Origin: a virus
Taxonomy: Duplodnaviria > Caudoviricetes
DNA length: 49,753 nt
Virus record (IMG/VR): IMGVR_UViG_3300020042_004316
Location: 1 to 49,753 of that record
Reading direction: 5' to 3' (one strand)
Part shown: positions 14,733 through 48,511 of the stretch, in pieces
Layout of the letters: each line of letters starts with the position of its first letter
Position numbering within the stretch: the stretch's first letter is position 1
Notes under the pieces: model-generated
Told to the model about the DNA's origin: nothing
The model's database searches: none
What the model saw: only the letters and a program-made list of their open reading frames with translations
Position numbers and translations under genes: made by a program

Positions 14733-17066
14733 ATGCCATTACAAAAACTACAATTCCGTCCCGGTGTTAACCGCGAAGGCACTACTCTCTCAAACGAGGG
14801 CGGCTATTTTGACGGCGACAAGATTCGTTTCCGTTCTGGCTACCCTGAGAAGATTGGTGGCTGGCAAGCTGATAGCGGGGCTTATTTCACTACGGTTCCT
14901 ACAGCTACGTTCTCATCAAGTGGCACATCGACAGCCGCTACACCTACTAGCGCATCGTTTTGGGGTATTGCTAAGGGGCTGTGGAACTGGATTAACTTAA
15001 CAGGCTACAACTTACTTGGCGTTGGTACTGACTTAAAGTACTACATACAGAACTCTTCGGGCGGTGCGTATAACGACGTTACCCCTATGCGTGTTACCAC
15101 TTCTGCTGGCGCAGTCACTTTTGCCGCAACATCTGGCTCTACCACTCTTGTAGTTACTAACGCTTCACATGGAGCGCAGGTGGCAGATTTTGTTTGTTTT
15201 ACTGGCGCTGTAACTCTTGGTGGTGTAATTACTGCAACCGTGCTAAATAGAGAGTATCAGGTTCAAACCGTTACAAGTAACAACACATACACAATTACTT
15301 CTTCTGTTGCCGCTAACGCTAGTGATATAGGTAATGGCGGCGGTTCTGTTATAGGCAACTATCAACTAACAACGGGCTACACCACATTTACGCTTGGTAC
15401 AGGTTGGGGCGCTGGTGGTTGGGGTGGCTCGGTTGGACCTAGTGCTACGACTGCGTTGACTGCAAGTATTAATAGTAGTTCTACTGCGGCTATTGCGGTT
15501 ACTTCTACAACAGGTTTTGCGGCGAGTGGATTAATCTACATTGGTTCTGAGGGTATCTCTTACCCATCAACAACGGGAACTACATTTGCCTCGCCTGTAA
15601 TCCGTGGATTTAACACTACAGCGGCGGCACACACTAATGGCGATGCTGTCTTTCAATACCCATCAACTGCAACTGGCTGGGGTTCTCCTGCTACCACTGG
15701 TATCGGCATTCAACTGCGCTTGTGGAGCCAATCTAACTACGGTGAAGATTTAATTATTAACCCACGCGGTGCGGCTATGTATTACTGGGCTAATAACGCA
15801 AGCCCTAATATTTATGACCGCTGTCAAATTATTAAAGCATCGACTAACGTAGTCACAAAATCAGGCACGTTTACACCAGACTCCACCTGTCCATCTGTTA
15901 CCAACTTTGTGTTGGTGTCTGATGCTTCGCGCTTTACTTTTGCTTTTGGCACAAACGACCCGACAGGTGTATACGCCACGGTAGCCCAAGACCCAATGCA
16001 GGTTCGCTGGTCAGACCAAAACACTGTGGCTGTATGGACACCTGCTATTACTAACCAAGCGGGCGGTATTCGTCTAAGCCACGGTTCTCAAATTATTACT
16101 GCCATTCAGACTAGGCAAGAGATTTTGGTGCTCACCGACTCAGCCATCTATTCGTTCCAGTATCTTGGTGCGCCGTATGTGTGGGGTAGCCAACTCTTAG
16201 CTGACAACATTTCTATCATCGGCCCCAACGCAATGATTGTTGTGAATAACGTCACCTACTGGATGGGAACGGACAAGTTCTATATGTACTCTGGTCGGGT
16301 AGAAACCCTGCCTTGCGCTTTGCGTCAGTACATCTATAACAACATTAACCTGACAGAAGCGTTCCAGTTTTTTGCTGGCACAAACGAGGGCTACAACGAG
16401 ATATGGTGGTTCTACTGTTCTATTACTGGGACTACATCTGCGGGTGAAAACGGAACGGGCACACCGGCTTCGCCTAATCGTTTAGTTGACCGCTACGTAA
16501 TTTACAACCATCTTGAGCGCACTTGGTACTACGGTACTTGGAACGGTACAACTGTTCGCCCGCGCACGGCTTGGTTAGATAGCCCATTAAGAGCAGAACC
16601 TATAGCGGGTATTGGGTATAACTCTGGCGGGGTGTACACCAACGGTGCAGTTGTATACCATGAGACTACCGTAGACAATAACGAGACTACAACCCCAGTT
16701 GCTATTGATGCCTATGTTCAATCGTCGGACTTTGATATAGGGGACGGTCATAATTTTGGTTTTGTTTGGAGGCTTATTCCCGACATCACTTTTGATGGCT
16801 CCAGTGCAGCAACGCCTTCCGTTAACTTTACGGTAAGACCGCGTGCTTTCCCCGGCTCAAACTACGGCAACTCAAACAGCCCAGACGTAGATAGCACTCA
16901 GTCCTATGTCAGCACAACAACCTACAACGTACAGCAATTTACTCAACAGGTCTATGTGCGGATACGGGGTAGACAGATGGCGTTTAAGATTTCTTCATCA
17001 GACCTTGGTACGCAGTGGCAGTTAGGCGTTCCGCGTATTGACGTCAGACCTGACGGTAGGAGATAA
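14733..17066 (+). CDS. Tail nozzle / tubular protein B-like (P22 gp10-like beta-propeller)
   Basis: MPL.KLQF.PG...RFR.G.PEKIGGW start, VRWSDQ, RTAW.D, R.RGRQ...DGRR end; position just before the ejection proteins. Confidence 0.65.
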   Translation: MPLQKLQFRPGVNREGTTLSNEGGYFDGDKIRFRSGYPEKIGGWQADSGAYFTTVPTATFSSSGTSTAATPTSASFWGIAKGLWNWINLTGYNLLGVGTDLKYYIQNSSGGAYNDVTPMRVTTSAGAVTFAATSGSTTLVVTNASHGAQVADFVCFTGAVTLGGVITATVLNREYQVQTVTSNNTYTITSSVAANASDIGNGGGSVIGNYQLTTGYTTFTLGTGWGAGGWGGSVGPSATTALTASINSSSTAAIAVTSTTGFAASGLIYIGSEGISYPSTTGTTFASPVIRGFNTTAAAHTNGDAVFQYPSTATGWGSPATTGIGIQLRLWSQSNYGEDLIINPRGAAMYYWANNASPNIYDRCQIIKASTNVVTKSGTFTPDSTCPSVTNFVLVSDASRFTFAFGTNDPTGVYATVAQDPMQVRWSDQNTVAVWTPAITNQAGGIRLSHGSQIITAIQTRQEILVLTDSAIYSFQYLGAPYVWGSQLLADNISIIGPNAMIVVNNVTYWMGTDKFYMYSGRVETLPCALRQYIYNNINLTEAFQFFAGTNEGYNEIWWFYCSITGTTSAGENGTGTPASPNRLVDRYVIYNHLERTWYYGTWNGTTVRPRTAWLDSPLRAEPIAGIGYNSGGVYTNGAVVYHETTVDNNETTTPVAIDAYVQSSDFDIGDGHNFGFVWRLIPDITFDGSSAATPSVNFTVRPRAFPGSNYGNSNSPDVDSTQSYVSTTTYNVQQFTQQVYVRIRGRQMAFKISSSDLGTQWQLGVPRIDVRPDGRR

Positions 17067-18824: not shown

Positions 18825-19279
18825 AAAACAGTCACGGAAAACTGGAGTGGTTTGGGGGCAACCAAGATGCTTTAAACGTTTACCATGCGTTTGTTGATTT
18901 GGCACACATTTGGGATGACCTCGTAGACAAAGACAAGCCTGTTTCTGCAGATGAGATCAATCTCGCCTTCTTGACATGCTTGGTTTATCTGCCAGCTAAT
19001 CCGTTTTACCGCAGTATTCAAGAACAAATCTTACCCATGTGGCTTGTTGTGGTTTCTGCTTATGAAACTGCAAACTCTTTTGAGAAAAACAAAGACCCGC
19101 ATGGTATTGAGATTGCCCACGGTTTAAGATATTCTGTTGGAAATATCTTGGCGTATGCGGTTCATCTGTGTGTCGGTCCAGAGAAAGCAAAAGAATTCTT
19201 GCCAGACATGTGGAAAACAATTTTTCACGAGCGGTTTGATGATTACCGCAAGGAGCATTTAGATGTTGATTCCAAATAA
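18821..19279 (+). CDS. Class I isoprenoid synthase / prenyltransferase-like protein (DDxxD)
   Basis: Helical protein with HIWDDLVDKD motif; coupled to both neighbours. Confidence 0.5.
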   Translation: MKNSHGKLEWFGGNQDALNVYHAFVDLAHIWDDLVDKDKPVSADEINLAFLTCLVYLPANPFYRSIQEQILPMWLVVVSAYETANSFEKNKDPHGIEIAHGLRYSVGNILAYAVHLCVGPEKAKEFLPDMWKTIFHERFDDYRKEHLDVDSK

Positions 19280-21428
19280 ACACAACGGTTATTCTCGTGA
19301 CGGTATCCGTCTTTATCACATGGATCAGGGAAGTCCAGCGCCAGCGGCAGAACAAAAGGCCACTACAGAACTGCCTGATTGGGCAAAGCCGTATGCCAAA
19401 GACATACTGGCTAAGGGTCAGGCGTTAACTGACGTTAACCAGAACCCATATCAGATTTACAACCAAGACCGCATTGCAGGGTTTTCCCCAATGCAACAAC
19501 AGGCTATGCAAAACGCACAAGGCATGTCTGTTGCTCCTCAAGTTGGTGCCGGTACTGCAAGCGCAATAGGCGCTGGTCTTGGTGGGTTAGACGTTGCCAA
19601 TCAGGCGACCACTGGAGGATTCCAGAGCCAAGTAGGCGGGTACATGAATCCGTACCTACAGATGTCTTTGGCTCCTCAGTTGGCAGAGGCTAACCGCGCA
19701 TATGATGCTGGTGCAACCAAGCAACAAAGTGCCGCTACACAGGCTGGTGCGTTTGGAGGCTCTCGTGAAGCCATCATGGCGGCTGAAAATGAGCGTAACC
19801 GCAACATGGGGTTACAAAATATTATTGGTCAGGGCTATAACCAAGCCTTTGGTCAGGCCCAAAACCAATACAACCAAAACCTTAGCAATCAACTCCAAGG
19901 GTACGGTATGCTGGGAAACACTGCCAATACTCTTGGGCAGTTAGGGCAAAACCAATACACCCAAAACATGGGCATCAACGCACTGCAGTCGCAGTACGGT
20001 GGTCAACAACAAGCCCAGATGCAAAGAGGTTTAGATACTGCGTATCAGGACTTCCAGAACCAACAGAACTACCCATACAAACAGTTGGGTTTCATGTCTG
20101 ACATGATCCGTGGTTTACCACTGGGTCAGCAGTCTACATCTCAGATGTATCAGTCTCCCGGAAGTGTCGCTGGTCAGATCGCCGGTCTGGGCATGGGTGC
20201 TTATGGCATGAGTAGAGCCTTTGCCGCCGAGGGTGGCTTAATGGATTCTTACGCTGGTGGCGGAGAGATTGACAGCGCTGGCAACATTGCAGGCATCCTG
20301 TCTAAACTTAGTGACCAACAACTCCAGCAAGCAAAGCAAGCCGCACTAGGCCGCCGTGACGTGGAGCAGGCAACCCTAATTGATCAAGAGATAGCTGACA
20401 GGGTGGCTATGCGCACTGGTGTAAACGCATCTCCTATAAACGCAGATGCTATGGCTTCGGATGAAAACCCAGATAGCATCACAGGATACGCCGCTGGTGG
20501 CTCTGCTGTTCAAGCATTAATGAACAAACCAAGAGACCCAGAAACTCCTGTGGATCAGCAGGCTCTTGACATACTTGACAAATTGTCTGCCCGTAGCAAA
20601 CCTGCAATGGATGCTTTAAACGCACAAGTTGAAAGTATTAAAGGACGTCCTGAAGAGATCAAGGAGCGTGGTTTGGGTGAGGCAATTGCAAAATACGGTT
20701 TTGATTTTGCAGCAAAATCAGCTAAACCCGGTGCCAAATTCTTTGGTGCCGCCTCTGAAGCATCTCCTGTCCTTGCTGAATCCATGATGAACACTAAGAA
20801 GTCTGTTCAAGCGGCGCAAGACAATTACATCAACCTCAAGATGAATCAGACCAAGTATCAGATTGCTCTTGACAAGGGTGATATGCAAACTGCCGCAACC
20901 TTGGCTGGTCAGTTGCGTCAAGAGAAACAAAGCCAGAAAGTGCTGGAGTTGACTGCCGCCCACTACGTTGATGACTACGGAATCAAGAAGGAGCAAGTTG
21001 CCGCAACATTACGTGCGCAGGGCGCTCCGATCATGCAGGTTTATAACGAACTTAAATCTGATCCTGCCAACAAAAACAAGAGCCGTGAAGAACTCATGGG
21101 CTTGGCAAGCAGAGCCATGTACGGTGCGCAATATGCCGGCACAGAACAGCGCGGACTTTCTAATTACCTTAAAGAAAAGAATGAGATTGAGAAAGATTTC
21201 AAGACCTTACCGCTCCTACCGCCTAACAGCCCAATGCGTAAGCAAATGGAAGGTGCACGCCAACAAAGACTTGATGATTTAAACAAGATGTATCCGGGGG
21301 CATCAGGTCAAGAGGGCGCTCCATCTGGCAGCATTTCGTCTGCGGTGCCACAAGGTGGTCAGAGGACGGCGGCCTCATCTATGCAACAAAGTGATGTTGA
21401 TTTAGTCAATAAATATTACAGGCAATAA
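19263..21428 (+). CDS. Putative DNA ejection protein
   Basis: Q/G/A-rich; YMNPY, AGAFGGSR and GGQQQ...DFQNQQNYPY patterns; three xA.GG motifs. Confidence 0.6.
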   Translation: MLIPNKHNGYSRDGIRLYHMDQGSPAPAAEQKATTELPDWAKPYAKDILAKGQALTDVNQNPYQIYNQDRIAGFSPMQQQAMQNAQGMSVAPQVGAGTASAIGAGLGGLDVANQATTGGFQSQVGGYMNPYLQMSLAPQLAEANRAYDAGATKQQSAATQAGAFGGSREAIMAAENERNRNMGLQNIIGQGYNQAFGQAQNQYNQNLSNQLQGYGMLGNTANTLGQLGQNQYTQNMGINALQSQYGGQQQAQMQRGLDTAYQDFQNQQNYPYKQLGFMSDMIRGLPLGQQSTSQMYQSPGSVAGQIAGLGMGAYGMSRAFAAEGGLMDSYAGGGEIDSAGNIAGILSKLSDQQLQQAKQAALGRRDVEQATLIDQEIADRVAMRTGVNASPINADAMASDENPDSITGYAAGGSAVQALMNKPRDPETPVDQQALDILDKLSARSKPAMDALNAQVESIKGRPEEIKERGLGEAIAKYGFDFAAKSAKPGAKFFGAASEASPVLAESMMNTKKSVQAAQDNYINLKMNQTKYQIALDKGDMQTAATLAGQLRQEKQSQKVLELTAAHYVDDYGIKKEQVAATLRAQGAPIMQVYNELKSDPANKNKSREELMGLASRAMYGAQYAGTEQRGLSNYLKEKNEIEKDFKTLPLLPPNSPMRKQMEGARQQRLDDLNKMYPGASGQEGAPSGSISSAVPQGGQRTAASSMQQSDVDLVNKYYRQ

Positions 21429-24400
21429 ATGGAACTAAATCAAGTTCTTGGCGCACTGCGCAATGCTGATGCGGCAGGCGATGTTGAAGCCGCAAAAAGA
21501 TTGGCTGTAATAGCGAAATCTTTGACTGGGCAAATAGGCCCAGAGGCCATCATGTCCACGGAGGATTTACAGAATGCTAAGTCCGCACCTACCTCTATTA
21601 GCGATATTGCCCGCTCATTTGGTTCTGGCGTTGTTGGTGCAGGCAAGTCCTTGGTTGATGTATTTGGTGCTGGCTCTGGAGTCTCGCAGTATCTTGGAGA
21701 AGTTTCGCAAGGTCTTCAACAGGGCCTAACTCCTGAGCGCCAAGCAGAGATGGCTCGCCGTGCCGAGTTGTCTAAACGTGCTGAGAAAGAAGGAACCTTT
21801 GCCGAGATTAAGAGCGGCTTGGCTGGTATTCTTGAAGCCCCTCTACAGAGTATTGCGCAAGGTGTTGGCTCCTCCCTCCCGACTATCGCTGCTGGCTTAG
21901 TTGCCTTACCCGCCTCCGCCCCCGCCGCTCTAGCCGTGGGTGTTCAACGTGCTAGTCAGATTCTGATCTCTGCCGCACAGGGAACTGGTGAAGTTAAGGG
22001 CGACATCCATGAGTCCATTAAGCAAGCATACAAAGAAAAAAACCCCAACATGCCGCCCGAAGAGGTGGAAAGATTGGCAACCGAAGCACAGGCTTACACA
22101 CTAAAGAACGCACCCCTATTGATTGGCGGTGCAGCATTTGGCGCACTAGACGCCGTTACAGGATTTGAGAAGTCAGCATCCAGAGCCTTGAGAGGCGCGT
22201 TGACTCCAGAGAAGACATTCACCAAAGAAGGTTTGGATGCCGCTGTTGCTAACCTACCTAAGAAGGCTGTGGAAGCACCAACCTACTTGGGACAAGCGGC
22301 TAAGGTTGGTATTGGTGAGTCTATCCCTGAGGGCTTACAAGGTGGCTACGGTCAGTTAGCCCAGAACGTGGCAATGACTCAGGCTGGATTTGAGACGCCA
22401 ACATTCCAAGGCGTGGCAGGTGCGGCGGCTAGAGATGCTCTAGTTGGTGCGTTGACCGGAACGGCAATGTCTCCTTTGGGCTATTCTGTTGCAAATGCTG
22501 ACTTCCAAGCGGACAAGTTCTTGCGGGGCGTTCAGTCCCAACAACAGTTTGACAAAGAACGCGAAGAGTTCACTAAGACTCAAGAGCAGACCAAAGAGAA
22601 CCTTGGTGTAAACAAGACATTGATGTTGGGCTATGAGCCTCCAGCAGAGGAAGAGAAGTTCACCAACCCGCTTGCAACCATCAAGAGAAGTGAGTTACCC
22701 CCTGAGAAGAGTGGCGACATAATTCTTAAAGAGTTGAAGTTTGTGGACAGTTACCGCAAACAAAACGGTCTTCCTCCCATTAAGTCGTATTCTATTGAAG
22801 ACATCAAAGATGCGATGCCCGGTGTTGATCCGGAAGGAGAACAGGGTCGCATTGATGCCATCTTAGCCTCTAAGTACGGCTATAAGCCTGTGGACGACAA
22901 CACAGGTAAGCCAGTGAACTACACCGTTGATGACGTTATCTCTGCCGCAGAGGACGAGAAGAACGTTGCTACAGGCACCAAAGGGTTTAACGACTTCCTA
23001 ACACGCACTACAGGTTCTAGTGATTTAAACACTATGACCCAGCCTCAGTTGTTTGCCGCGTATTCTGCAATTAAGCAGATGCCTGAGTCCAAAGAGAAGG
23101 TGATCCTTCCTGAGGGTACAGGTGCGTCTAGATTTACCGACAAGCAATACAAGAAGGCTGTCAGTTGGTTTGGTCAGACATTTGAAGGTGTTGACAACAA
23201 GCCTTTGTCACGGGACACCATCATTGGAGATATTCAAGAAGCTACAGGGCTAGGGCAGAAGCAAGATGCTGAGGCTCTATTAGATACAGCAGTCAGAAAC
23301 GGTGACTTGGCTGAGACCGAAGAAAGAGTTTTCAGAACCTACGACGATAACGATAAACTTGTTGCAACGTACCGGGATAAGGAAAAGGCCGCCGCAGCGG
23401 CTAAAAAACAAGGTTTAAACGTTAGAGAAGAGACGCTTAGACAGATGATGCCGCCACCAGCGGCAGAGCCAGCCAAACGTACCACCCTCCCACAGGGTTA
23501 CGCCATGAGCAAGGAGACCATCAAAGAAGGTGAAGTCCCCGTTGGTTTTGACATCTTCCCAGAAGGTAAAGGTAAGTCTCTATTTACCGTCCCCACATCA
23601 GAGGCGGTACAGGAAAAGATTGACCAACTCATCCCTGCCCGTAAGAAGGAAGCCGCCCGTTACTTGGGTTACATGGACAGAGACAAGGCAACCTTGCAAA
23701 AGGCAAGAGACGGTTTGGTCTCTATGGAAGCCCGTGGTGAAGTTGGTTCACAGGCTTATGAGCTTGCCAAGACTAAGTTAGCCAAGCAAGAGAGAGTTCT
23801 GGGCAACCGCATCCTCAAGAGCATGGAGCGTATTACGGATTACGAGCAACCGCTCATATCACGCCCATCTGAGAAGAAGAAGCAAATTACCCGTGAGAAG
23901 ATCACGGTAACTAAACAAGGTAAGTTCTTAGGCAGTTTCCCTGATAACGTCAAGGCACAGGAGGCTATCCTTGTCCAGATGTCGGATCAGGAACTGGCTG
24001 ACACAGCGTCTGACGGTCGTCTTGGTGCGATTGCTGACCGTGCCGCCAAAGAGATTGAGCGCCGTAAGAGTCCCGCTGGCATCATGGTCAGACGCACTCC
24101 TAAAGCCAAGGAAGAGTTGCCACCTCTATCTCCAGAACTCACAGCAGTTGCTGATGAGATTTCCAAGAAGTTAGTCCCCATCCTTCAGCGCATGGGGCTA
24201 GGAGATGTTGGGTTAAAGATTGTTCAGTCTATTAAGAACGGTGGAGAAGGCTCTTACACCAAAAACCTGATTCAATTGGCTATTGATGCAGAGAAACCGT
24301 TAGAGGTTATGCATCATGAGTCGTTGCATGCGTTGAAGGACTTAGGGTTCTTTACACCACAACAATGGTCTACCCTAGAGAACCAAGCACAGAAGTCTTG

Positions 24401-27400
24401 GATCACTAAGTACTTAAAGAACGTACAAGTTGAAGTTGAGATTGAAGGCAAGAAGCAGACTATGTCTCGCTATGACGCCTATGTAGCACTGAAGTACACA
24501 CCAGATGACATTGTGGAAGAAGCAATTGCCGATGCGTTTGCTGACTTTGCTACCTCCAAGCCGCCGGGCGGAATGATCGCTTCCATAATGAAGCGTTTAA
24601 ACGACCTATTCAAGGCAATTAAGAATGCGTTTAACCGCAGCGGCTTTGAGTCCGCTGAGGACATCTTTGCCAAAGCACAGCGCGGTGAGTTGAAACAGTC
24701 TCAAGCAAATGCTTGGGCAGCCACCCCACAAGATGTAGAGAAGGCTGATAAGTATGCAGAAAAGAACGGCATCCTTCCCTATGTATCTGCTGGTAACTTA
24801 GAGCTTCCTTTACAGACTCCTAAGTTCTCTTTAAAGAAAGTAGATAAATATGGCATTGACCCAGCGTTCAACATCCCTTTAAACAAGGATGGAACGATAA
24901 CGGTCTACTACCACACCACCAAAGAAGGCGCACAAAAAGCCAACAACGAAAAATCTATCCAAACTAATGGCAAGCGTATCTATCTAACCAATGAATCTAG
25001 CGGTGCGTTGGTCTTGGAGAACAAGGGAAACTTTGACCAAGAGGTGGACGGTGCGGTGGTCATAATGAGATTGCCACCAAGCATGCTTCAGTTGGATAAG
25101 GCGTATGCAGACGGTCGTAAAGACTTTTATGTGCCAGTTAAACAGGGCGCTTTCTTTGACGAGAAGATGCGCATGTCTGCCATCCAAGTCTCTAAGAATA
25201 CGCCAATCCTCAAGAAGGGCGAAGTATTTAGTTACTCTGAGTACTCCAACCGTATTACAGATGCGATAACTGAATACGACAAGTTATCACCCAAAGAGCA
25301 AAAGTTGCGGATGGATGAAATCCGTGACTTTATGAAGGAGCAACACAACATTGGCACGTTGCTTACTGAGAACGGTAAGTTGGAAAAGACACGGGAAGTT
25401 GGACTCAAGAACCAAGAGACAGACGTTGCGTCTATGGGTCTTGGACTTGCCGCCGCTCAAAAGATTTCTGACAAATTAAGCACATGCCCCAACTCCGCTA
25501 TCTGTATGGACTTGTGTCTTGGAGATACCGCAGGCGGTAACCAACAGTACGGTGGCGTAGCGGCTAAGGATGTAAACGGTATTGAGAAGAGCGCCTTCCG
25601 TGCCGGACCGCGCATGGCGCAGTACTTGAAGACAGAGGGTTTGGTCATACACCCAGAAGAACTTGCCCTGATGCTCCATGACGAGATCACCAAGTTTGAG
25701 AAGTGGGCGAAGAAAAATGAGTATGAGCCATCTATACGTTTAAACGTTACTTCCGACATCAAGCCAGAGTTTTGGTCCGGTCTCATGGCTGCACATCCAG
25801 ATGTAGTATTTTATGACTACACTAAATTGAATGGTGACGCTGTTGCTCCTAACCATCACCTGACCTATAGCTCAACAGGCTTTGGTCAGATTATTGACGG
25901 TGAGTACGTTGCCCACAAGACCAACAACTGGCCTGCCATGCGTGGTCGTTTGGATCGCGGGTTTAACGTGGCTATGGCGTTTACTAGTAAGAGCGCACTC
26001 CCTGATCAGGTCATTGATAACGAGACCGGAAAAGTCTATAAGGTATGGGATGGCGACAACTACGACGCACGTTACTTAGACCCCAAGCAAGAGAATGGCG
26101 TTGGCATGGTTGTCGGCTTGAGAAACAAAGCCGGAACTATGAAGGAAGCCACTTCCACCATAGATACAGATGGATTCTTTGTTGACTACGATCCAAAGCG
26201 GGACGGTAACTTTGTCTTGGTTGCCAATCAAGGGCAGTTTAAAAACAGGGTCATCCCTATTGCTCAGGAGAAGTTAAGCCTACGTAGCGCAAGAGGAATG
26301 TTTGAAGATGGTTTGATTCAAGAAGTTCCAAATTACAAGGGCAGAGAAAAAATCATTGAGTTGCCTATCAAAGACTTCTTAAAACTTGCGCAAGAAGGCG
26401 AGGTCAGGAGTAAACAAAGTGATATTGAAGACCTATTCAAAGCTGGCACTAAATTAAATTCACTGCCGTTGTTGATGGCTTACAACAACCAAAAGGGCGA
26501 CCTAAAGGTTCAAGGACATGAAGGACGCCACAGGGCTAGGGCTTTGTTGGCTGAAGGGTATGACACCATGCCCGTCAGATTCCTGACTAGCATTCGCTGG
26601 TCTGAGCAAGAAGACCCGTCAAAATTTGACTATGAAAAGAATTGGCCTTCAAAAGTTCTGTCCGAGGACAGCGATGACATAAGCATTCCCATGCCTGTAT
26701 CCCGTGAGCAATCAATGGAGCCGTACAGCAGTGAGAAGTTAAGTCTTCGTAGCACAAAGGCAGCCCCAACTACGCCTGCGTTTAAACGTTGGTTTGGTGA
26801 TAGCAAGATTGTTAACCCAGATGGCACGCCAAAGGTTATGTACCACGGTACAGGTAAAGACATTACATCGTTTGAGCGCAAGACATCACGTGGCTCGCCC
26901 ATCTTCTTGACTGATGATCCGGCAGTTGCGGCATCGTTCTCAAGAGACAGCCAAGACTATGTGTTGGAACAATTTGTAAAAAATGCCCCGCTAGAACTTC
27001 GCACACAAAAGGCTGCCGAGTTATTGGATAAACTGAAGAAGGACGAGTTCAAAGGTTCTGAGTTCAAGGATAGAGTAAAGAAACTTGAGCAGTCGCTTAG
27101 TGAAGGCAAATTAAACGACATTATTTTGCTGGATGAAGAACGCTATCAACGCCTGTTTGCCGGTGAACTTGCCACCTATGGCAACGTTATGCCTGTCTAT
27201 GTCAAGGCAGAGAATCCGTTTGACTATGACAACGAAAGCCATCAAGAAGAAATTAAACAGTTTTATCCAAAAGACGAGCCGTCTTACGAACTTGATGATC
27301 TTTCACTCAAAATCAGGACGGGCGCTTGGTCAACGATAGAAAGCGCTGCTGTCCAAAATGCAATTAAAGAGGCTGGCTTTGATTCTTTCTATGTCAAAGA

Positions 27401-30400
27401 AGATGGCAAGAAGAACTTAGCCGTCTATGATTCATCCCAAGTCAAGTCTGCTATTGGTAATCAAGGCACATACGACATCAATGAGCCTGACATTCGTCTA
27501 AGCCTTAAAAAGGTAGATCAACTGTTTGATAAAGCCGATGACATCCCTGAGTCAGAAGGTGTGGAGATCATCCGTAGCAACTGGGTTGGTGGCGTGTCTG
27601 GTTTGGGCGAGCGTGGCTCGGCCTATGACTTGTACCGTGTAAACGGTGGCAGGAAGTACATGAGCGCCGTTCAAGACTTAGTGCGTAAAGAACTTGGAGA
27701 TAACTTCAAGGGCTACCGCCTAATGCATACCGACGAGTTGGAAGAGATACAGGCTGGCGCTATGGGTAGCCAACTGGCATCCTTCACCTTGCGTCCTGAC
27801 ATTGCACAGTCTTTTGCTAACCTTGCCACCTACAGAAAAGTTCCTAAAGACAAACTTAAAGTTGTTGAGATGGACTTGACTCCTGAGCATGTGTGGATGA
27901 TTGGTCACCCCGCAGAGAAAGAGTTGGTCATTGACTATGGTCAAGGATATAACCCTGAGGCTGTGGTTGAGTACAAGGAGAAGTTAAGCCTCCGTGCGTT
28001 GATGCCTGACCTGCGCAGCCAGCGCCAGCCGCCAGAATCTAAAGAGTTTAAACAGTGGTTCACTGGTAGTTACTTCACGTCCGGTGGTGAGCCATTGATC
28101 ATGTACCACGGCACTGCCCGTGATATAACCATCTTTAAAGGCAAACAGGCTAGTGCGATCTTCATTACCACCAACCCTGTGGTGGCTGAGAACTACACAG
28201 GCATGGGTGAGGACTACATGCGTGCTGAAGCCTATAAGGCTTTGACCCGTGACGAGAAGGCCGAACTCATTTCTGTTGTGGCTGAACAGGCCGAGCGGGA
28301 CGGAAAGATCAATGCCAATGAACTCATAGAGATTCAGAAGAACCTCAAGAAGCGCGTCCCTGATCTCAAGAACCTGCCATTTCAAATTGATGGCGAGATC
28401 ATTGAGAGTTTAAACAACTTGCTGCCTACACGCGGCAACATCATGCCGGTGTATGTCAGCGCCAAGAACGTCTTTGACTACGCCAATCCTAGTGATGTGA
28501 ATTTGGTCATGGACAAACTCACCAACTACAGCAAGACCTTAGGTAAAAAGGAAAACCCTGAGCAGTACCTAGCCGCTGTTAAGGGAATGATCTCCCGTGG
28601 TAACTGGCCTCGCATTGAAAGCCCTGAGGTGCAAGAAGCCATCAAACGCGCTGGCTTTGACGGGTTCTCTGTCCTAGAAGCCGGCACTAAGAACTATGCC
28701 ATCTACAACCCGACCGCCATCAAGTCCGTTACAGGAAACATTGGAACGTTTGGATTAGGCGAAGTAAGCACTGAACAAGCCGCACAGTTTGGCATGACAG
28801 CCGAGCAAGCCCGTCAGGCACAGGCAGAAGGCGATATCCGTTTAAGTCTGCGTAAAGCCCCAGACACACCTGAGTTTAAACGCTTCTTTGCAGGCAGCAA
28901 GGTCGTCAACGAAGATGGTGAGCCTTTGGTCATGTATCACGGAACTGGAAAAGACTTTTCAGAATTTAAGTACAACCCAACTAAGGCAATTGGTATTTGG
29001 ACGGCGCGAAATCCCGAAATCGCATCTCAATATGCCGACATTTCTTCAAGAGGTGGAGATTCTCCATCCGTATACCCTGTTTATCTATCAATAAAAAATC
29101 CTGCGTCTAGAAAAGATTATTTGCGAACAAGAAAAATTGCAGAAGAGACAAGTGTCAAGGAAGGCAGATGGAGAGACCATGACGCAAGACATCGTCAATT
29201 GCTTATAAATGAGGGGTTTGATGGGATATATTTACAAAACATAACCAAAGACCCGGAAGAAGATGTTTATATAGCCTTTGAACCAACACAGATTAAGTCT
29301 GCTATTGGCAACCAAGGCACTTACGACCCAACTAATCCTGACATCCGTCTAAGTTTGAAGCGCGTTCCTATTGGTGTACCGGATAACGTTTGGCATTTAC
29401 ACAACAGATATCAGGAAGCACAAGGAAACGTTGCTGAAGGCGAGATGGTTTCCCAGCGCAAGACTTCTGCAACCAAAGCGTTTAAACAGCTAAGCAATGC
29501 TGCCGAGAAATTTGCTGGCAACGAAAGCGACGCACTGAAACTCATGCAAGAGATGAACACCATCAGCGGTATTCGTCAGGCTATGGCTGAGGACGATAAG
29601 AGTGCGTTGGATGCATACAAGGTTATGTCTCCCGCCCTGTGGCGTCAGGAGACTCGTGAGAAGTTAAGTCTACGTGCCGTTACTCCAGCCGCTATCAATG
29701 ATGCGATTGACAGAACCACTTCCGTAAGAGAACAGAAAGGTTTTATTGAGAGGATGATGGAAGCCATCTCTCCTCAGTCATGGTCTGACTTCCGTGCCAA
29801 GGCTTTGAACCGTTACAACGCCATGAGCGTGGCAGACAAGAGGCGTGCTAAGAAGATGGGTGGAGCCGTCCTCCTTGCTGACCAAAGCGCTGAATCAGCC
29901 GCACTCATGTCTGATCTGTCGGCGGGTGTAACAGCCTCTGTCCTAGGTGTACATGACCGCAACGGCGGTGCTCCAGTGTTCCGTAACGGTATAACCACAA
30001 TTGATGGAAGCATCAAAGGTCCCGTGGCTATCTTTTCTCCGTTGGCAAGATATGGCGACCCCCGTGTTTATCAGATGTGGCAGTTCTATGCCGGTGCTAA
30101 ACGTGCCCGTAGATACTTCAAGGACGGTAAAGAGCAGAACTACACGCCAACCGACATGGCATACGCCGACCAGTTGGGCAAGCAGTATCCTGAGTTTAAA
30201 CAGATATTTGAAGAGTGGAACAAGTTCAACAACGCACTAGTCCAGTACCAAGTAGACACAGGTGTACTGAGTAAAGAGCGTGCAGATGAGTACCGCAAGT
30301 TTTCAGACTACCTACCGTTCTACCGCCAGTTGGAAGATGAGGCAACCCTCGGTCCCAAGGTGTTCCAAAGCATCTCTGGTGTCAGGGGTCCTAAGAAACT

Positions 30401-32216
30401 CAAAGGCTCAGATGCTCCCATCGCTGACCTGATGGAGACTATCGTCCGTAACGTTCAGTCTGGCATCCAAGCCGGTATGAAGAACACAGCGGCTCAACGT
30501 GCTATTAAAGTGTTTGAGGACATTGGTGAGGCTGTGCCAACCCATCCAACAGATACTGGACCCTCTACCGTGTACGCTTTGGTGAATGGTGAGAAGAAAG
30601 CCTACATCGTTGCAGACCATGCGTTGTACAACTCCATGCAGAGTTTAAACTTGCCTGACTTGCCGTTCCTCGGTTTCTTTGCAGGTCCAGCTAACCTCTT
30701 GCGTAACCTAGTTACCAAAGACCCCGGATTCATGTTAGCCAACATGGTGCGTGACTCTATGTCTGCATGGGTAACTAGCGGTGTCAGCATGACGCCCGTG
30801 GCGTCCGCAGTCAAGAACTTCACTGGTGCGTTGCGTGGCACTGCTCCAGAATACCAAGCGCTTTTAAACGCTGGTATCTTGGGTGGCTATGAGTTCTCAC
30901 AGAATGTGGAAGCAAGCGGTAAGCAACTCAGTAAAGAGTTAGCCAAGTACGGTCCAAGCACAACCTTTGGCAAGATCACCAAGCCGTTTACATCCTTGTG
31001 GGGAGCGTTAGAGAAAGGCACTACAGCCTCTGACGCCGCTACCCGTATGGAGGTTTACAAGAATGTACTGGCTGAGACAGGCAACGAGGCAGAAGCCCTG
31101 TACCGTGCGCTTGAGGTGATGAACTTCAACCGTAAGGGTAACTCAGCCGTCGTGCGGATTTTGACTGCAGCCGTTCCATTCTTGAACGCACGCATGCAAG
31201 GTCTAGATGTTCTTTACCGTGCGTCCTTTGGTGAGATGGCTACGCAAGACGCAAAAGCAATTCAGAAGTCGTTCTTCATTAGAGGGGCAACTATCATGGC
31301 TATGTCCATGATGTATTGGGCGCTGACCCATGATGAAGAAGACTACATGAAACAGGAACAGGAAACCCGTGACAACTACTGGTTAATACCTAGTCTCGGC
31401 ATCAAGATTCCTATTCCGTTTGAGGTTGGCGTTATCTTCAAGGTAATCCCTGAGCGTATCGCTGAGTATGCCTTTGGCAACGACACAGGCAAGGACTTTG
31501 CCGATGCCATGAAGCGTAACTTCACAAACACCTTCGCGTTCAATCCTATCCCTCAGACCATCCTCCCGTTGGTTGAGGCTAAGGCTGACTACTCCTTCTT
31601 CACCGGACGAGCCATCCTCAGTAAGGGTCTAGAGGGCGTGGCTCCGGAGTTCCAAATGGGACCCAACACCTCGCGCATGGCTCAGTTCTTTGCTAGTTTG
31701 ACAAGCGGTATGACGGTGTTGCCTGAGTTCCTCCGCTCTCCTGTAATGATTGATCACATCATCGGTGGATACACAGGAACGTTTGGCATGTATGCCGTGG
31801 ACGCTATAGATGCGGTGGTTAGTGCTAACAGTGATGTACCCAAGGCATCTAAGCGCTTTGAACAGATGCCAGTGTTGCGTAGGTTCTTGCTTGACCCTGA
31901 GGCACGTGGCAACGTGACTGCGTACTACGACCTCAAGAACGCCACAGATGAGGTGGTCAGGACATCTAACTTCCTTGAACGCACCATGAACTTTGAGAAC
32001 TTTGCTGACTACAGTGAGGACACTATAAAGATGTTAGCAAGCGCTGACTTCGTTAAGGCTCTAGACAAGGACATGAAGGAGTTAAACGACGTAATTGGTG
32101 TCGTAAGAAACTCTGGCATGAGTTCTGATGAGAAGAGAGATGCCCTGTTGTCCCTCAATCAGGCACAGAACAACCTGACTGCCAACGTTAAGTTGATTAA
32201 GAAGTCACTGGACTGA
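21429..32216 (+). CDS. 3595-aa large polyvalent virion protein (metallopeptidase, ART-like, Gp88-like, ParB-like, LPD38-like domains)
   Basis: HESLH+EEAIAD zincin motif; three F..WF..S.....G.P..MYHGT modules; CPNSAICMDLC...RLNVTSD...FYDYTK; HEGRHR; C-terminal PFLNARMQG...RDNYW...KIPIPFEVG. Confidence 0.85.
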   Translation: MELNQVLGALRNADAAGDVEAAKRLAVIAKSLTGQIGPEAIMSTEDLQNAKSAPTSISDIARSFGSGVVGAGKSLVDVFGAGSGVSQYLGEVSQGLQQGLTPERQAEMARRAELSKRAEKEGTFAEIKSGLAGILEAPLQSIAQGVGSSLPTIAAGLVALPASAPAALAVGVQRASQILISAAQGTGEVKGDIHESIKQAYKEKNPNMPPEEVERLATEAQAYTLKNAPLLIGGAAFGALDAVTGFEKSASRALRGALTPEKTFTKEGLDAAVANLPKKAVEAPTYLGQAAKVGIGESIPEGLQGGYGQLAQNVAMTQAGFETPTFQGVAGAAARDALVGALTGTAMSPLGYSVANADFQADKFLRGVQSQQQFDKEREEFTKTQEQTKENLGVNKTLMLGYEPPAEEEKFTNPLATIKRSELPPEKSGDIILKELKFVDSYRKQNGLPPIKSYSIEDIKDAMPGVDPEGEQGRIDAILASKYGYKPVDDNTGKPVNYTVDDVISAAEDEKNVATGTKGFNDFLTRTTGSSDLNTMTQPQLFAAYSAIKQMPESKEKVILPEGTGASRFTDKQYKKAVSWFGQTFEGVDNKPLSRDTIIGDIQEATGLGQKQDAEALLDTAVRNGDLAETEERVFRTYDDNDKLVATYRDKEKAAAAAKKQGLNVREETLRQMMPPPAAEPAKRTTLPQGYAMSKETIKEGEVPVGFDIFPEGKGKSLFTVPTSEAVQEKIDQLIPARKKEAARYLGYMDRDKATLQKARDGLVSMEARGEVGSQAYELAKTKLAKQERVLGNRILKSMERITDYEQPLISRPSEKKKQITREKITVTKQGKFLGSFPDNVKAQEAILVQMSDQELADTASDGRLGAIADRAAKEIERRKSPAGIMVRRTPKAKEELPPLSPELTAVADEISKKLVPILQRMGLGDVGLKIVQSIKNGGEGSYTKNLIQLAIDAEKPLEVMHHESLHALKDLGFFTPQQWSTLENQAQKSWITKYLKNVQVEVEIEGKKQTMSRYDAYVALKYTPDDIVEEAIADAFADFATSKPPGGMIASIMKRLNDLFKAIKNAFNRSGFESAEDIFAKAQRGELKQSQANAWAATPQDVEKADKYAEKNGILPYVSAGNLELPLQTPKFSLKKVDKYGIDPAFNIPLNKDGTITVYYHTTKEGAQKANNEKSIQTNGKRIYLTNESSGALVLENKGNFDQEVDGAVVIMRLPPSMLQLDKAYADGRKDFYVPVKQGAFFDEKMRMSAIQVSKNTPILKKGEVFSYSEYSNRITDAITEYDKLSPKEQKLRMDEIRDFMKEQHNIGTLLTENGKLEKTREVGLKNQETDVASMGLGLAAAQKISDKLSTCPNSAICMDLCLGDTAGGNQQYGGVAAKDVNGIEKSAFRAGPRMAQYLKTEGLVIHPEELALMLHDEITKFEKWAKKNEYEPSIRLNVTSDIKPEFWSGLMAAHPDVVFYDYTKLNGDAVAPNHHLTYSSTGFGQIIDGEYVAHKTNNWPAMRGRLDRGFNVAMAFTSKSALPDQVIDNETGKVYKVWDGDNYDARYLDPKQENGVGMVVGLRNKAGTMKEATSTIDTDGFFVDYDPKRDGNFVLVANQGQFKNRVIPIAQEKLSLRSARGMFEDGLIQEVPNYKGREKIIELPIKDFLKLAQEGEVRSKQSDIEDLFKAGTKLNSLPLLMAYNNQKGDLKVQGHEGRHRARALLAEGYDTMPVRFLTSIRWSEQEDPSKFDYEKNWPSKVLSEDSDDISIPMPVSREQSMEPYSSEKLSLRSTKAAPTTPAFKRWFGDSKIVNPDGTPKVMYHGTGKDITSFERKTSRGSPIFLTDDPAVAASFSRDSQDYVLEQFVKNAPLELRTQKAAELLDKLKKDEFKGSEFKDRVKKLEQSLSEGKLNDIILLDEERYQRLFAGELATYGNVMPVYVKAENPFDYDNESHQEEIKQFYPKDEPSYELDDLSLKIRTGAWSTIESAAVQNAIKEAGFDSFYVKEDGKKNLAVYDSSQVKSAIGNQGTYDINEPDIRLSLKKVDQLFDKADDIPESEGVEIIRSNWVGGVSGLGERGSAYDLYRVNGGRKYMSAVQDLVRKELGDNFKGYRLMHTDELEEIQAGAMGSQLASFTLRPDIAQSFANLATYRKVPKDKLKVVEMDLTPEHVWMIGHPAEKELVIDYGQGYNPEAVVEYKEKLSLRALMPDLRSQRQPPESKEFKQWFTGSYFTSGGEPLIMYHGTARDITIFKGKQASAIFITTNPVVAENYTGMGEDYMRAEAYKALTRDEKAELISVVAEQAERDGKINANELIEIQKNLKKRVPDLKNLPFQIDGEIIESLNNLLPTRGNIMPVYVSAKNVFDYANPSDVNLVMDKLTNYSKTLGKKENPEQYLAAVKGMISRGNWPRIESPEVQEAIKRAGFDGFSVLEAGTKNYAIYNPTAIKSVTGNIGTFGLGEVSTEQAAQFGMTAEQARQAQAEGDIRLSLRKAPDTPEFKRFFAGSKVVNEDGEPLVMYHGTGKDFSEFKYNPTKAIGIWTARNPEIASQYADISSRGGDSPSVYPVYLSIKNPASRKDYLRTRKIAEETSVKEGRWRDHDARHRQLLINEGFDGIYLQNITKDPEEDVYIAFEPTQIKSAIGNQGTYDPTNPDIRLSLKRVPIGVPDNVWHLHNRYQEAQGNVAEGEMVSQRKTSATKAFKQLSNAAEKFAGNESDALKLMQEMNTISGIRQAMAEDDKSALDAYKVMSPALWRQETREKLSLRAVTPAAINDAIDRTTSVREQKGFIERMMEAISPQSWSDFRAKALNRYNAMSVADKRRAKKMGGAVLLADQSAESAALMSDLSAGVTASVLGVHDRNGGAPVFRNGITTIDGSIKGPVAIFSPLARYGDPRVYQMWQFYAGAKRARRYFKDGKEQNYTPTDMAYADQLGKQYPEFKQIFEEWNKFNNALVQYQVDTGVLSKERADEYRKFSDYLPFYRQLEDEATLGPKVFQSISGVRGPKKLKGSDAPIADLMETIVRNVQSGIQAGMKNTAAQRAIKVFEDIGEAVPTHPTDTGPSTVYALVNGEKKAYIVADHALYNSMQSLNLPDLPFLGFFAGPANLLRNLVTKDPGFMLANMVRDSMSAWVTSGVSMTPVASAVKNFTGALRGTAPEYQALLNAGILGGYEFSQNVEASGKQLSKELAKYGPSTTFGKITKPFTSLWGALEKGTTASDAATRMEVYKNVLAETGNEAEALYRALEVMNFNRKGNSAVVRILTAAVPFLNARMQGLDVLYRASFGEMATQDAKAIQKSFFIRGATIMAMSMMYWALTHDEEDYMKQEQETRDNYWLIPSLGIKIPIPFEVGVIFKVIPERIAEYAFGNDTGKDFADAMKRNFTNTFAFNPIPQTILPLVEAKADYSFFTGRAILSKGLEGVAPEFQMGPNTSRMAQFFASLTSGMTVLPEFLRSPVMIDHIIGGYTGTFGMYAVDAIDAVVSANSDVPKASKRFEQMPVLRRFLLDPEARGNVTAYYDLKNATDEVVRTSNFLERTMNFENFADYSEDTIKMLASADFVKALDKDMKELNDVIGVVRNSGMSSDEKRDALLSLNQAQNNLTANVKLIKKSLD

Positions 32217-44764: not shown

Positions 44765-46402
44765 TTATGCTACTAATTTGATTTTGTTGAATGCCATCGC
44801 ACCGATGCTGTGAACATTACGCACGGTAACGTTGTGCTTGTATACGTTGGATACATCCAACTGGATACCTAGACCTATCGTTGTGATACCTAGACGTTCG
44901 CCTGATTCCACTTGCAGTCTTGTATCTACACCGTTGCCCTGACCATCAGTCAATACAAAGCAAACCTTGCGTTGTGCGTTGTGACCGTGCAGTAACTCGT
45001 GTGCATAGCGCACTGCAAAGTAATCGTTGGTACATCCGCCTGACCCGATGTTGCTCAATGCTTTGATGGTCTTCTTAGCGTTGTCTTTAAAACCCTTAGC
45101 CACGCCCACGCTGTCACCAAATGTGAGCAGTGCTGTATCTACACCGGCTCTGTTCAATGCGTCTAACAGGGATGCTGTCGCATTGATGGCGCACTGGATG
45201 GGGCTGTTAGGTATATCGCTGTGGAACATAGAAGATGAAACGTCCAACACGATCACCACTGCTGAATCGATACCTTCAATTTCTAACCTACGTTTAAACA
45301 GGCGATCGTTACCCTGTGCGATTGTGTGCAGTGCACGTGTGTTGATCGATCCGGCTTTGCGGTTGCGTTGGAAGTCATCAGTGCCGGTGTTCTCAAACAT
45401 TTTGCGCACTTCGTAACGTAACTTGGCACCCACGTTTATGTCGGTTCTAAAACCATTACGTGATTCCATGTGCCCACGCTTGGTAATGCCTGATGACGTG
45501 CTGTATGTACCCTCAGCACCAGTACCCTCAGGGGCTTCATTCTTAGGCTCGACTTCACGTGCCTTGCATGGTGTACCGTCTTTTTTCACTGGTGAACATG
45601 CCTTGCCTGTGGGCTTAGGAGCGGGGTTAGTACCCTCACCCTCACCCTTGCCCTGATCGTCGCTTGTAGACCCCTTCTCGTCGGTCTCAGCACCATTGCC
45701 TTGACCCTCACCCTTGCGTGGGAAACCATCAGCACCTTTGCCATCAGGGTTGCCATCCGATGGTTTGTCGCTGTCACGCTGTGGGTTTTGCTTGTCAAGG
45801 TTTTGCAGTTGGTCATACACCCACACTGCGATTGCCAATGTGTCAAATGAATTTTGGACAGTGGTAAGACGTGCACATGCACCGTCAAACACTGGTTGCA
45901 ATCCCTCAGCCAAGGGTAACTTCACGGTTGCGTGTTTACGTGCATAGACAGCCAAAAGGAAAGGGTAACGTGCGGGGTGATGCCACTTGTTGTCCCATCC
46001 GGCTAGTGCATCAGTGCTCATGTTGTCGATCACGCTAGACAAGAGACCTTGCGCATTACCGACTAAACCCTGTGCAATGCATGTGTTCTCGATCCATGCG
46101 TCTTCAATGGCATTGTGCAGTTGATCGATGTACTGGTTGTCACCACGTGCGTCAAAGTCGGTGTACTTTCGGTGCAGTAACTCGTGCAAGATAAAGCCAA
46201 CGTATTTGTCAAAGGTTTTGCGATCAATGATGGCATCGTCAGCCACGTTAGCCAACTCAATGTCACCTCGTGCGTTGATACGTGCTGTGCTGATATCGCC
46301 CCATGACACCGTCACTTGTGGCAAAGCCAACTCAGAACATAACTTGTGGCATGCACCGACAATTGCGATGCGGAATTCATAACCGTTTAAACGTGCTTTC
46401 AT
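44765..46402 (-). CDS. CobT-like protein: N-terminal HExxH peptidase-like domain, charged linker, C-terminal VWA (MIDAS)
   Basis: LHELLH..YT, N..EDA.IE; DVSSSM, GGCT, LTDG MIDAS residues. Confidence 0.85.
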   Translation of the reverse strand: MKARLNGYEFRIAIVGACHKLCSELALPQVTVSWGDISTARINARGDIELANVADDAIIDRKTFDKYVGFILHELLHRKYTDFDARGDNQYIDQLHNAIEDAWIENTCIAQGLVGNAQGLLSSVIDNMSTDALAGWDNKWHHPARYPFLLAVYARKHATVKLPLAEGLQPVFDGACARLTTVQNSFDTLAIAVWVYDQLQNLDKQNPQRDSDKPSDGNPDGKGADGFPRKGEGQGNGAETDEKGSTSDDQGKGEGEGTNPAPKPTGKACSPVKKDGTPCKAREVEPKNEAPEGTGAEGTYSTSSGITKRGHMESRNGFRTDINVGAKLRYEVRKMFENTGTDDFQRNRKAGSINTRALHTIAQGNDRLFKRRLEIEGIDSAVVIVLDVSSSMFHSDIPNSPIQCAINATASLLDALNRAGVDTALLTFGDSVGVAKGFKDNAKKTIKALSNIGSGGCTNDYFAVRYAHELLHGHNAQRKVCFVLTDGQGNGVDTRLQVESGERLGITTIGLGIQLDVSNVYKHNVTVRNVHSIGAMAFNKIKLVA

Positions 46403-46415
46403 TTTCTTACTCCGA

Positions 46416-47897: not shown

Positions 47898-47911
47898 TTG
47901 TATTACTCCAA

Positions 47912-48511
47912 TTAAACTAAGGTGAGCACGTCTTGATCGACAGGGCATGAGGGGAGACCGTAGGATGCCCATTTGGAAGACAGGCGCACGGTATAGCCAC
48001 AGGATGGGCACTCTGCTTTCAGCATGCGTGTGCCTTGTTTTTTCTTACCGTTGGCAAATGCCAACTCAGCATGTGGGTACGCACCCAGTGAGTCGATGAT
48101 CGCACCGTAGGCTTGGTCAAAACCGTTAGCCCCTTGCGTATAGCCCCATGCGTTTTTACGTGTGGGGTTGACAGGCTCTAACAGCATGGCTGATGCGATC
48201 TTTTGGAAGTTGACACCGTGGTTGAATCCGCCCTTGGCGGTATGGCATAACTCATGCACCAGTACTTCAAACACTTGTTTTGGCTTGGCGATGACAGGGC
48301 TAATTAATATTTCATAGTGCTTGTCGGCACTAGCAGTGTCGATCCAGCATTCGCCAATAGCGTTGTTACGCTTGGCATGTAGGGGAAAGCCACAAGTAAG
48401 GCGCACCTTGTCGGGAAGTATTGACCCTGCGATTTCAAATGCGGGGCGCAGTTCATTGAATGCAACGGTGAGCCACTCTTCACGTGTGGCGTGGACGGTA
48501 GGTAAGGTCAT
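47912..48511 (-). CDS. SprT-like zinc metalloprotease with C-terminal Zn ribbon
   Basis: IGECW, VLVHELCH...H...F, CPSCGY...PSCP. Confidence 0.8.
   Translation of the reverse strand: MTLPTVHATREEWLTVAFNELRPAFEIAGSILPDKVRLTCGFPLHAKRNNAIGECWIDTASADKHYEILISPVIAKPKQVFEVLVHELCHTAKGGFNHGVNFQKIASAMLLEPVNPTRKNAWGYTQGANGFDQAYGAIIDSLGAYPHAELAFANGKKKQGTRMLKAECPSCGYTVRLSSKWASYGLPSCPVDQDVLTLV

Follow-up and report, generated by a model that had tools for sequence, protein, structure and literature searches.

A repeated five-residue motif at the cassette joints of a giant phage polyvalent protein, a candidate cut site for its own predicted zincin

The giant protein encoded at positions 21429 to 32216 of the Caudoviricetes virus record IMGVR_UViG_3300020042_004316 is divided by eight copies of a five-residue motif, [KR][LF]SL[KR], which lie at the joints between its cassettes, and in a broader form, [KR]-x-S-[LIV]-[RK], the motif is family-wide. 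The stretch analyzed, called the window here, is the complete virus record of 49,753 bases. That the motif is a junction code is well supported. We propose, with a probability of roughly 60%, that the polyvalent protein is ejected and that its own predicted zincin cuts at the motif, probably between Ser and Leu, freeing ART and other effectors. Functionally unrelated domains recognized by Pfam (ART-PolyVal three times, GP88 and LPD38) share one chain of 3,595 amino acids, and by this architecture the protein is a phage-type polyvalent protein of the class described by Iyer et al. 2017. Its parts, all on the plus strand, are as follows.

21429..32216, + strand: polyvalent protein, 3,595 amino acids, closing a rightward virion operon
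21429..24143, + strand: N-terminal region, amino acids 1-905; no family match, no motif
24144..24698, + strand: predicted zincin-like metallopeptidase, about amino acids 906-1090; alpha-beta-beta-beta then HExxH helix in the second structure model
24315..24329, + strand: HESLH, at amino acid 963; H963, E964 and H967 invariant in 65/65 homologues
24516..24533, + strand: EEAIAD, from amino acid 1030; E1030 and E1031 invariant in 65/65; candidate third zinc ligand
24822..24836, + strand: junction motif 1, KFSLK, Ser codon TCT
24822..26270, + strand: cassette 1 (from motif 1), 483 amino acids; GP88 and an unconfirmed ART-like front; 21-copy family
26271..26735, + strand: motif 2, KLSLR, and cassette 2, 155 amino acids; ParB-like lead; 22-copy family
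26736..27494, + strand: motif 3, KLSLR, and cassette 3, 253 amino acids; ART-PolyVal with insert
27495..27980, + strand: motif 4, RLSLK, and cassette 4, 162 amino acids; R / S-x-T / E-x-E, no family match; 6 copies
27981..28838, + strand: motif 5, KLSLR, and cassette 5, 286 amino acids; ART-PolyVal with insert
28839..29345, + strand: motif 6, RLSLR, and cassette 6, 169 amino acids; ART-PolyVal; absent from motif to motif in homologue L003
29346..29660, + strand: motif 7, RLSLK, and cassette 7, 105 amino acids; no family match; 5 copies
29661..32213, + strand: motif 8, KLSLR, and the conserved C-module, 851 amino acids; LPD38 at amino acids 3303-3483; no more motifs

The junction motif and the cassettes it bounds

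The eight motifs of the initial annotation were recovered in the open reading frame (ORF) with exactly the codons and letters it gave, starting at amino acids 1132, 1615, 1770, 2023, 2185, 2471, 2640 and 2745. The chance expectation from composition is 0.034 motifs, compared with the 8 observed; among 20,000 shuffles of the ORF, 19,360 contained no motif, 632 contained one, 8 contained two and none contained more. A six-frame scan of the window returned just two further matches to the pattern, both on the minus strand. The annotated pattern is real but too narrow, the second position being Y, L, F, A, P or K across the family. The approximately 40 amino acids before motif 1 (window 24699-24821, amino acids about 1091-1131) form a mini-module whose counterpart in relatives is a segment of 41-44 amino acids preceding the GP88 cassette (16 copies); in the homologous loci L034, L063 and L066 it has its own upstream motif, which is absent from the window.

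Homologues were obtained by fetching 80 loci with the C-module, which gave 77 distinct proteins, the window protein included. Both the HExxH domain and the C-module are present in 67 of them, the 10 excluded being fragments without the peptidase. In these 67 proteins the strict pattern is found 196 times in the 78,273 amino acids between peptidase and C-module, and never in the 122,801 amino acids outside (67,206 upstream and 55,595 downstream). A position weight matrix (PWM) was trained on 65 of the 67, two partial proteins being left out, and a score of at least 8 was taken to define a site. By that threshold the 65 proteins possess 283 sites inside the variable zone and 9 outside it, with 2 to 8 per protein. 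These PWM-selected sites have K/R at 99%, then Y/L/F/A/P/K, S at 98%, L at 92% and R/K at 85%, and flanking positions do not exceed 33%. A held-out set comprised those 83 of 120 further proteins that are less than 90% identical to the training set and have both modules: there the middle zone holds 362 sites, the upstream part 6 and the downstream part 0, at least one site is present in 82/83 proteins, and 79/83 have a site at the C-module junction. Representatives of 50%-identity clusters (145 new, 142 above the peptidase score, 112 with the C-module) behave similarly: 107 of the 112 have a site, and of their sites 345 are in the middle, 13 no more than 70 amino acids ahead of the peptidase, 4 still farther upstream, 2 within the peptidase itself and 1 in the C-module. 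When 113 C-junctions were aligned without the PWM, K/R at 89% and S at 81% stood out at the motif above the neighbouring columns. The initial annotation had tied its reading to conservation of the motif at boundaries in homologues, and the training, held-out and cluster sets agree on confinement to the variable zone. In some homologues (L076, L082, L039 and L026; P0180, P0164 and P0155) motifs are found on both sides of the peptidase, with extra sequence upstream, which means that the peptidase, too, can be a cassette.

No Pfam domain in the window crosses a motif; each is contained within one motif-bounded segment, in agreement with the claim that motifs lie at domain boundaries. ART-PolyVal (PF18760) was identified in cassettes 3, 5 and 6 (E 3.5e-25, 8.9e-15 and 5.8e-28; 89.8, 56.1 and 98.9 bits compared with a curated cut-off of 31.2), GP88 inside cassette 1 (8.1e-19) and LPD38 in the C-module (E 1.7e-32). 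The original labels of ART for cassettes 3, 5 and 6 and of GP88 in cassette 1 are correct by this measure, whereas an ART-like front of cassette 1 and an R-S-E-type ART in cassette 4 are unconfirmed. Alignment to a local ART alignment with hhalign gave the front of cassette 1 a probability of 6% and cassette 4 a probability of 1%; a profile search of PDB sequences gave no match to the front, and cassette 4 had no match in Pfam, in NCBIfam above cutoff or, by profile search, in the PDB. Across the 5/5 aligned copies of cassette 4, R, S-x-T and E-x-E alone are invariant. The ParB-like label of cassette 2 is a lead, with Atlas look-alikes (0.93) of which 26-36% of members carry ParB_N and with a conserved GHEGRHR, but profile searches returned no Pfam and no PDB match. 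In the GP88 part of cassette 1, three invariant cysteines with C-x5-C-x3-C spacing are found in 20/20 aligned copies, which suggests a metal or iron-sulphur site. Among the representatives scanned, most segment families are without a Pfam match; further cassette families include a GNAT acetyltransferase, a methyltransferase and DUF7178 (L017:5708-6244, L073:6878-8560, L038, L074, L079).

Gain and loss of cassettes at the motif, for which the initial annotation had suggested looking, is evident among the homologues. Split at their sites, the 65 proteins give 254 segments, which group into 41 families and combine into 54 architectures; some of the long segments probably contain two or more domains, or a site that escaped detection. 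In all-versus-all alignments, whose end pairs are not independent of each other, 40% of 5,125 ends lie within 6 amino acids of a motif, as against 4.5% in 300 shifted controls (maximum 6.9%), and with the last joint left out the figure is 28% of 2,558 ends. A clean example is L003, whose C-module is 94% identical to that of the window and which is without exactly the 169-amino-acid cassette 6; at the crossover, DNA identity switches from the left flank to the right flank within the DIRLSL codons. In L005, cassettes 6 and 7 are both absent.

The predicted peptidase and its relation to the motif

What might open such joints? The HESLH and EEAIAD stretches are located where the initial annotation had placed them, upstream of the cassettes in the same chain; their five listed His and Glu residues do not vary in the 65 homologues, and HExxH is present in 83/83 held-out proteins. 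The domain has no name in Pfam or NCBIfam, and its profile found nothing useful among PDB sequences. In the second structure model, built from 84 sequences, a helix, three strands and the HExxH helix form the zincin topology. The top rows of a VIA-align search with this model are zincin-fold proteins, led by lethal factor (Z 5.5, root-mean-square deviation 4.9, 127 aligned), with PPEP-3 (Z 4.8), PPEP-2 (Z 4.6) and PprI (Z 4.3) next. The domain is predicted to be a zincin-like zinc protease. The MPTase of N4-like proteins has likewise been linked to lethal factor (PMC5512222).

Two genes upstream set the position of the giant ORF in the operon.

19263..21428, + strand: 721-amino-acid gene directly upstream of the giant ORF, PHROG 'DNA ejection protein' match, E 1.8e-21
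14733..17066, + strand: 777-amino-acid virion structural protein, phrog_3287

Standing after the DNA ejection protein and the virion structural genes, the giant ORF is in the ejection-protein position. Because of this position, and because LPD38 relatives have been found in virions, we propose that the giant protein would be packaged into the head and ejected along with the DNA, with a constant delivery frame formed by the N-terminal region and the LPD38 C-module. The zincin would then cut in cis each [KR]-x-S-L-[RK] joint between Ser and Leu. Thermolysin-like HExxH+E peptidases prefer a hydrophobic residue at P1', and Ser|Leu is put forward as the scissile bond because the position after Ser is likewise always hydrophobic: at 283/283 sites, partly through construction of the PWM, the residue is L (263), I (11), V (5), F (3) or M (1). 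Before Ser, K, A and P are all tolerated. Cutting would most likely take place during or after ejection, and since N4 vRNAP is packaged uncut (PMC5512222), this timing is somewhat likelier than cutting in the head. The freed ART-PolyVal and other modules might then modify host macromolecules (compare PMC9503650).

To what extent does the motif follow the peptidase? In 107,380 amino acids of ORFs, drawn from the window and from what was fetched of five complete relatives, 10/14 sites are in giant proteins; the remaining 4/14 are two weak matches in a 2,394-amino-acid gene of the window and two in small ORFs, and the capsid and portal ORFs of the complete relatives have no motif. Sites within one protein, although their flanks are unrelated, are more alike than sites of different proteins (position +4, 53% v 42%, p 3e-6). 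In a peptidase subclade comprising P0215, P0220, P0235 and P0245, Gln or Lys replaces Ser at 8 junctions and the next residue is still hydrophobic; no peptidase residue could be tied to this change beyond lineage-wide differences. The two small ORFs (L110:11527-11979, with DVKFSLRV, and L098:3479-3925, with KTKWSLRE) have strong motif matches outside the giant gene and no PHROG match, and represent either chance or extra substrates. The 2,394-amino-acid gene (3710-10894 of the window) is a second giant ORF, with no Pfam, PHROG or NCBIfam match, in which the repeat TIDMSLRT occurs twice.

Several observations weigh against self-cutting at the motif. MPTases are present in N4 vRNAP, ArdC and TraC1, which are nonetheless packaged or transferred without being cut (PMC5512222), and the authors of the phi24B study suggest a peptidoglycan role for the peptidase (bioRxiv 10.64898/2026.04.10.717836). 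Sites are missing from 5/112 cluster representatives and 1/83 held-out proteins, and no site reaches the PWM threshold in Ruegeria phage 45A6, L125-L129 and P0121 despite their peptidase, so that this peptidase can exist without the motif; the reverse case, a clade member with a dead peptidase, was not found in the 65-protein, held-out or cluster sets. The change to Gln or Lys is confined to a single lineage, in which P0215 retains one Ser site, and it follows the protein as a whole no less than the peptidase. Roughly 60% of alignment ends fall away from motifs, and the window and L003 also differ by one exchange located within an ART cassette. As for the fold, the first AlphaFold model (63 sequences) had no beta sheet, and Foldseek and VIA searches with it were empty; Foldseek with the second model returned nothing from the PDB at E<=0.001, zinc peptidases recurring among the weak rows, and the VIA-align Z scores are middling by the tool's own scale. 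Two motif residues form a short strand in the second model (predicted local distance difference test, pLDDT, about 57), for which no partner was reported.

The more distant relatives give a looser picture. Cultured LPD38 relatives found by search are 22-31% identical in the C-module, and those examined have other peptidase types (several HExxxH) or none; 0/11 have more than one site at the PWM threshold. In phiARM81mr, Pondi, Vibrio 1.232.O and CF418P1 (L084, L085, L083 and L088) the HExxxH-type motifs are not named by Pfam. In Aeromonas phage phiARM81mr, RIRFSK precedes and KKFSQ follows an HExxxH domain, and in coliphage Pondi such a domain is followed by VRKSLP, which hints at an older, wider code. 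Coliphages PTXU04 and Pondi each show just one site of a looser kind, located behind an HExxxH domain. A relaxed pattern, [FY]S[RKLIVQ], counted over whole distant LPD38 proteins, does not separate those with a peptidase (109 in 71,852 amino acids) from those without (55 in 27,795). Within windows chosen post hoc in 51 distant LPD38 proteins, [FY]S is found at the C-module junction in 18/44 with an HE motif (null 16%) and in 2/7 without, the latter group being too small to judge, and after the peptidase in 14/34 (null 19%); these counts are suggestive of a looser [FY]S signal. No relatives turned up for a peptidase-less LPD38 protein used as query, and neither the distant peptidase relatives nor six ART-bearing proteins from five annotated phages contained another repeated motif by de novo search. 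A count of peptidase relatives gave 2,475. One of the distant proteins, P0121, is 4,460 amino acids long and has the peptidase domain four times and no motif. Several distant copies of the peptidase also occur in proteins of 1,200-4,500 amino acids on large contigs of Bryobacterales genome bins (L127-L135), and the motif is absent from those examined.

Such relatives, which have the peptidase without the motif, would suit a protein in which the motif is bound and not cut. It could be a docking or threading signal that spaces module folding or translocation and is read by a partner from the phage: the C-module, the ejection conduit, the capsid interior or a chaperone. The zincin would then have another substrate. 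The constraint on the peptide, discussed below, and the presence of one site per module fit binding equally well, and MPTase-bearing proteins are known to travel uncut (PMC5512222). We nevertheless consider binding unlikely. A narrow four-position consensus set in variable linkers, with an invariably hydrophobic residue after Ser, resembles protease subsites; sites bracket the peptidase itself in some homologues (the 13 within 70 amino acids upstream in the 112 proteins); and the head and tail proteins of the five complete relatives are without the motif save for two small ORFs and two weak tail-protein matches.

Cutting at the motif could alternatively be the work of another protease, either a maturation protease encoded separately by the phage or a protease of the host encountered during ejection. 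In giant phages, prohead proteases cut ejected head proteins at short motifs (PMC10052503), and several head-region ORFs of the complete relative G001 are unnamed. Against this, the capsid, portal and neighbouring head ORFs of the relatives do not have the motif, and every full-length clade member examined has an intact zincin in cis. No separate maturation protease was named among the 25 ORFs scanned, several of them unnamed; the sole 'protease' PHROG matches cover profile positions 413-614 and are on the 303-amino-acid major head protein. We regard a second protease as improbable.

Constraint on the peptide or on its DNA

Is it the peptide that is maintained at the joints, or the DNA that encodes it? 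At the 283 sites, Ser is encoded by AGY in 240 and by TCN in 36, and is replaced by Asn in 7, compared with an AGY background of 33%; TCN Ser is mostly at the first joint after the peptidase (24/42). Since both Ser codon families encode the motif, the constraint acts on the peptide. The 265 distinct sites comprise 220 different 15-mers, with varying third codon positions. The invariant Ser columns of the C-module display the same all-or-none AGY/TCN lock, and the AGY bias at the motif is therefore due to descent. Leu before Ser is encoded by YTA in 43/58 sites compared with 97/258 in the background, an excess that is not fully explained.

These codon patterns bear on whether the motif has any function in the protein, or is simply a footprint that shuffling of cassettes leaves behind, namely a short linker that recombination copies and gene conversion keeps similar. 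The AGY excess, together with the stretches of 15-25 bases that the window motifs share, does indicate that copies descend from each other, and the L003 crossover is within the motif codons. However, third positions vary while K/R, S and L are held at 99, 98 and 92% with flanks at or below 33%, the PWM-free alignment of C-junctions likewise raises K/R and S above their neighbours, and the 36 TCN sites encode the same peptide with different DNA, all of which makes a mere footprint a poor candidate. Integron core sites have the form GTTRRRY, which GTTAAGY in four window sites fits, and the YTA excess points the same way, but a DNA site for an integron- or shufflon-like site-specific recombinase was rejected as very improbable, given the diversity of the 15-mers, the use of both Ser codon families, the predominance in the family of [KR]-Y/F-S sites with other DNA, the codon lock of the C-module Ser columns, by which descent explains the bias, and the failure to find free-standing donor cassettes beyond the giant gene, either in the window or in what was fetched of the five relatives.

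We conclude from the codons that the motif peptide is under selection and that its coding DNA appears to double as shuffling microhomology. Recombination between the 15-20 bases encoding two motifs would add, delete or swap a cassette in frame, and as this leaves an intact site on both sides, any new module would be releasable at once. The initial annotation had interpreted the protein as a self-processing magazine with the motif as a cleavage or linker signal. Boundary placement, conservation, gain and loss at the motif, the invariant peptidase residues and the ejection-position gene speak for that interpretation in part; cutting by the zincin in cis and anti-defence roles of the cassettes are predictions, and two of its cassette labels are without independent support.

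Genome setting and relation to known systems

The window contains podovirus-type adaptor, tail and lysis genes, and the head genes of complete relatives are not in it. The complete relatives are 63-65 kb long, with terminal repeats in 2/5 and the same gene order as the window (G001 included). A pair of genes encoding a MoxR-type AAA ATPase and a vWA protein (CobS/CobT-like) is found at 44765-48011 of the window, on the minus strand. In a host search the genome matched only short binned contigs of unrelated taxa, and no host was identified.

The wider picture that could be drawn is tentative, and we would put it forward as possible rather than probable: a large uncultured podovirus clade with a programmable effector magazine, in which a constant frame and a built-in zincin are combined with a five-residue code that is both cut site and recombination handle, code and protease being rewritten together in each lineage (S to Q/K; the looser [FY]S in distant LPD38 proteins). 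If this were true, any code-flanked enzyme could be loaded, injected and released, and the approximately 40 mostly unnamed cassette families would amount to a ready-divided catalogue of proteins for host takeover and anti-defence in the first minutes of infection. An N-terminal Leu-Arg is a bacterial N-degron, and cutting at Ser|Leu would leave Leu-Arg at the N terminus of freed effectors, which could provide a built-in timer. The motif itself makes it possible to divide giant phage proteins that lack annotation into separate candidate effectors that can be exchanged (41 families in 65 proteins), and explains how modules can be gained and lost without breaking the protein.

The window protein is like the phage-type polyvalent proteins of Iyer et al. 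2017 (PMC5512222) in being a large virion-operon chain with MPTase, ART-PolyVal and LPD38. In that paper the MPTase was proposed to process polyvalent proteins into functional units, and its main text, supplementary files aside, yielded no recognition motif or cleavage site in the accessible part; here, unlike in that account, a specific repeated motif is found at every joint and cassettes are exchanged there. A literature search, whose scope left out most subscription papers and the supplements of PMC5512222 and two bioRxiv preprints, found no paper on this motif. Since 2017, processing by the MPTase has been proposed without any site to go with it. With the motif, the positions are exactly defined, the scissile bond is predicted and a catalytic residue is available for mutation, so that the proposal becomes testable with one small construct.

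The LPD38 C-module is common to the window protein and three proteins of cultured podoviruses: phi24B gp47, an LPD38 protein found in virions by mass spectrometry (bioRxiv 10.64898/2026.04.10.717836), the Bcep22-like JC1 gp69, found in virions by the same method (PMC9144972), and PTXU04_00025, which is required for efficient infection (bioRxiv 10.1101/2023.09.18.558157). Unlike what is proposed for the window clade, no processing is reported for gp47, PTXU04_00025 or gp69 in the accessible text of these sources. If cleavage in the window clade is real, the peptidase would be a compact protease with sequence specificity, and the frame would be a natural means of delivering several proteins into bacteria.

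Ejected head proteins are also processed by prohead proteases, T4 gp21 and Alt being a further case of this kind. The short-motif-directed cutting of packaged and ejected proteins that we propose is like the prohead-protease processing in SPN3US (gp245; PMC10052503). Unlike in these systems, where a separate protease also cuts capsid proteins, the motif here is confined to the peptidase-bearing chain.

MARTX proteins are secreted bacterial toxins for eukaryotic cells and employ a cysteine protease. The window protein, in contrast, comes from a phage, would act in bacterial cells and has a predicted zinc protease, and homology between the two is not expected. The likeness is one of logic: constant N- and C-terminal delivery regions, exchangeable central effectors and processing after entry (PMC4453568, PMC5218395, PMC6731672, PMC6315884).

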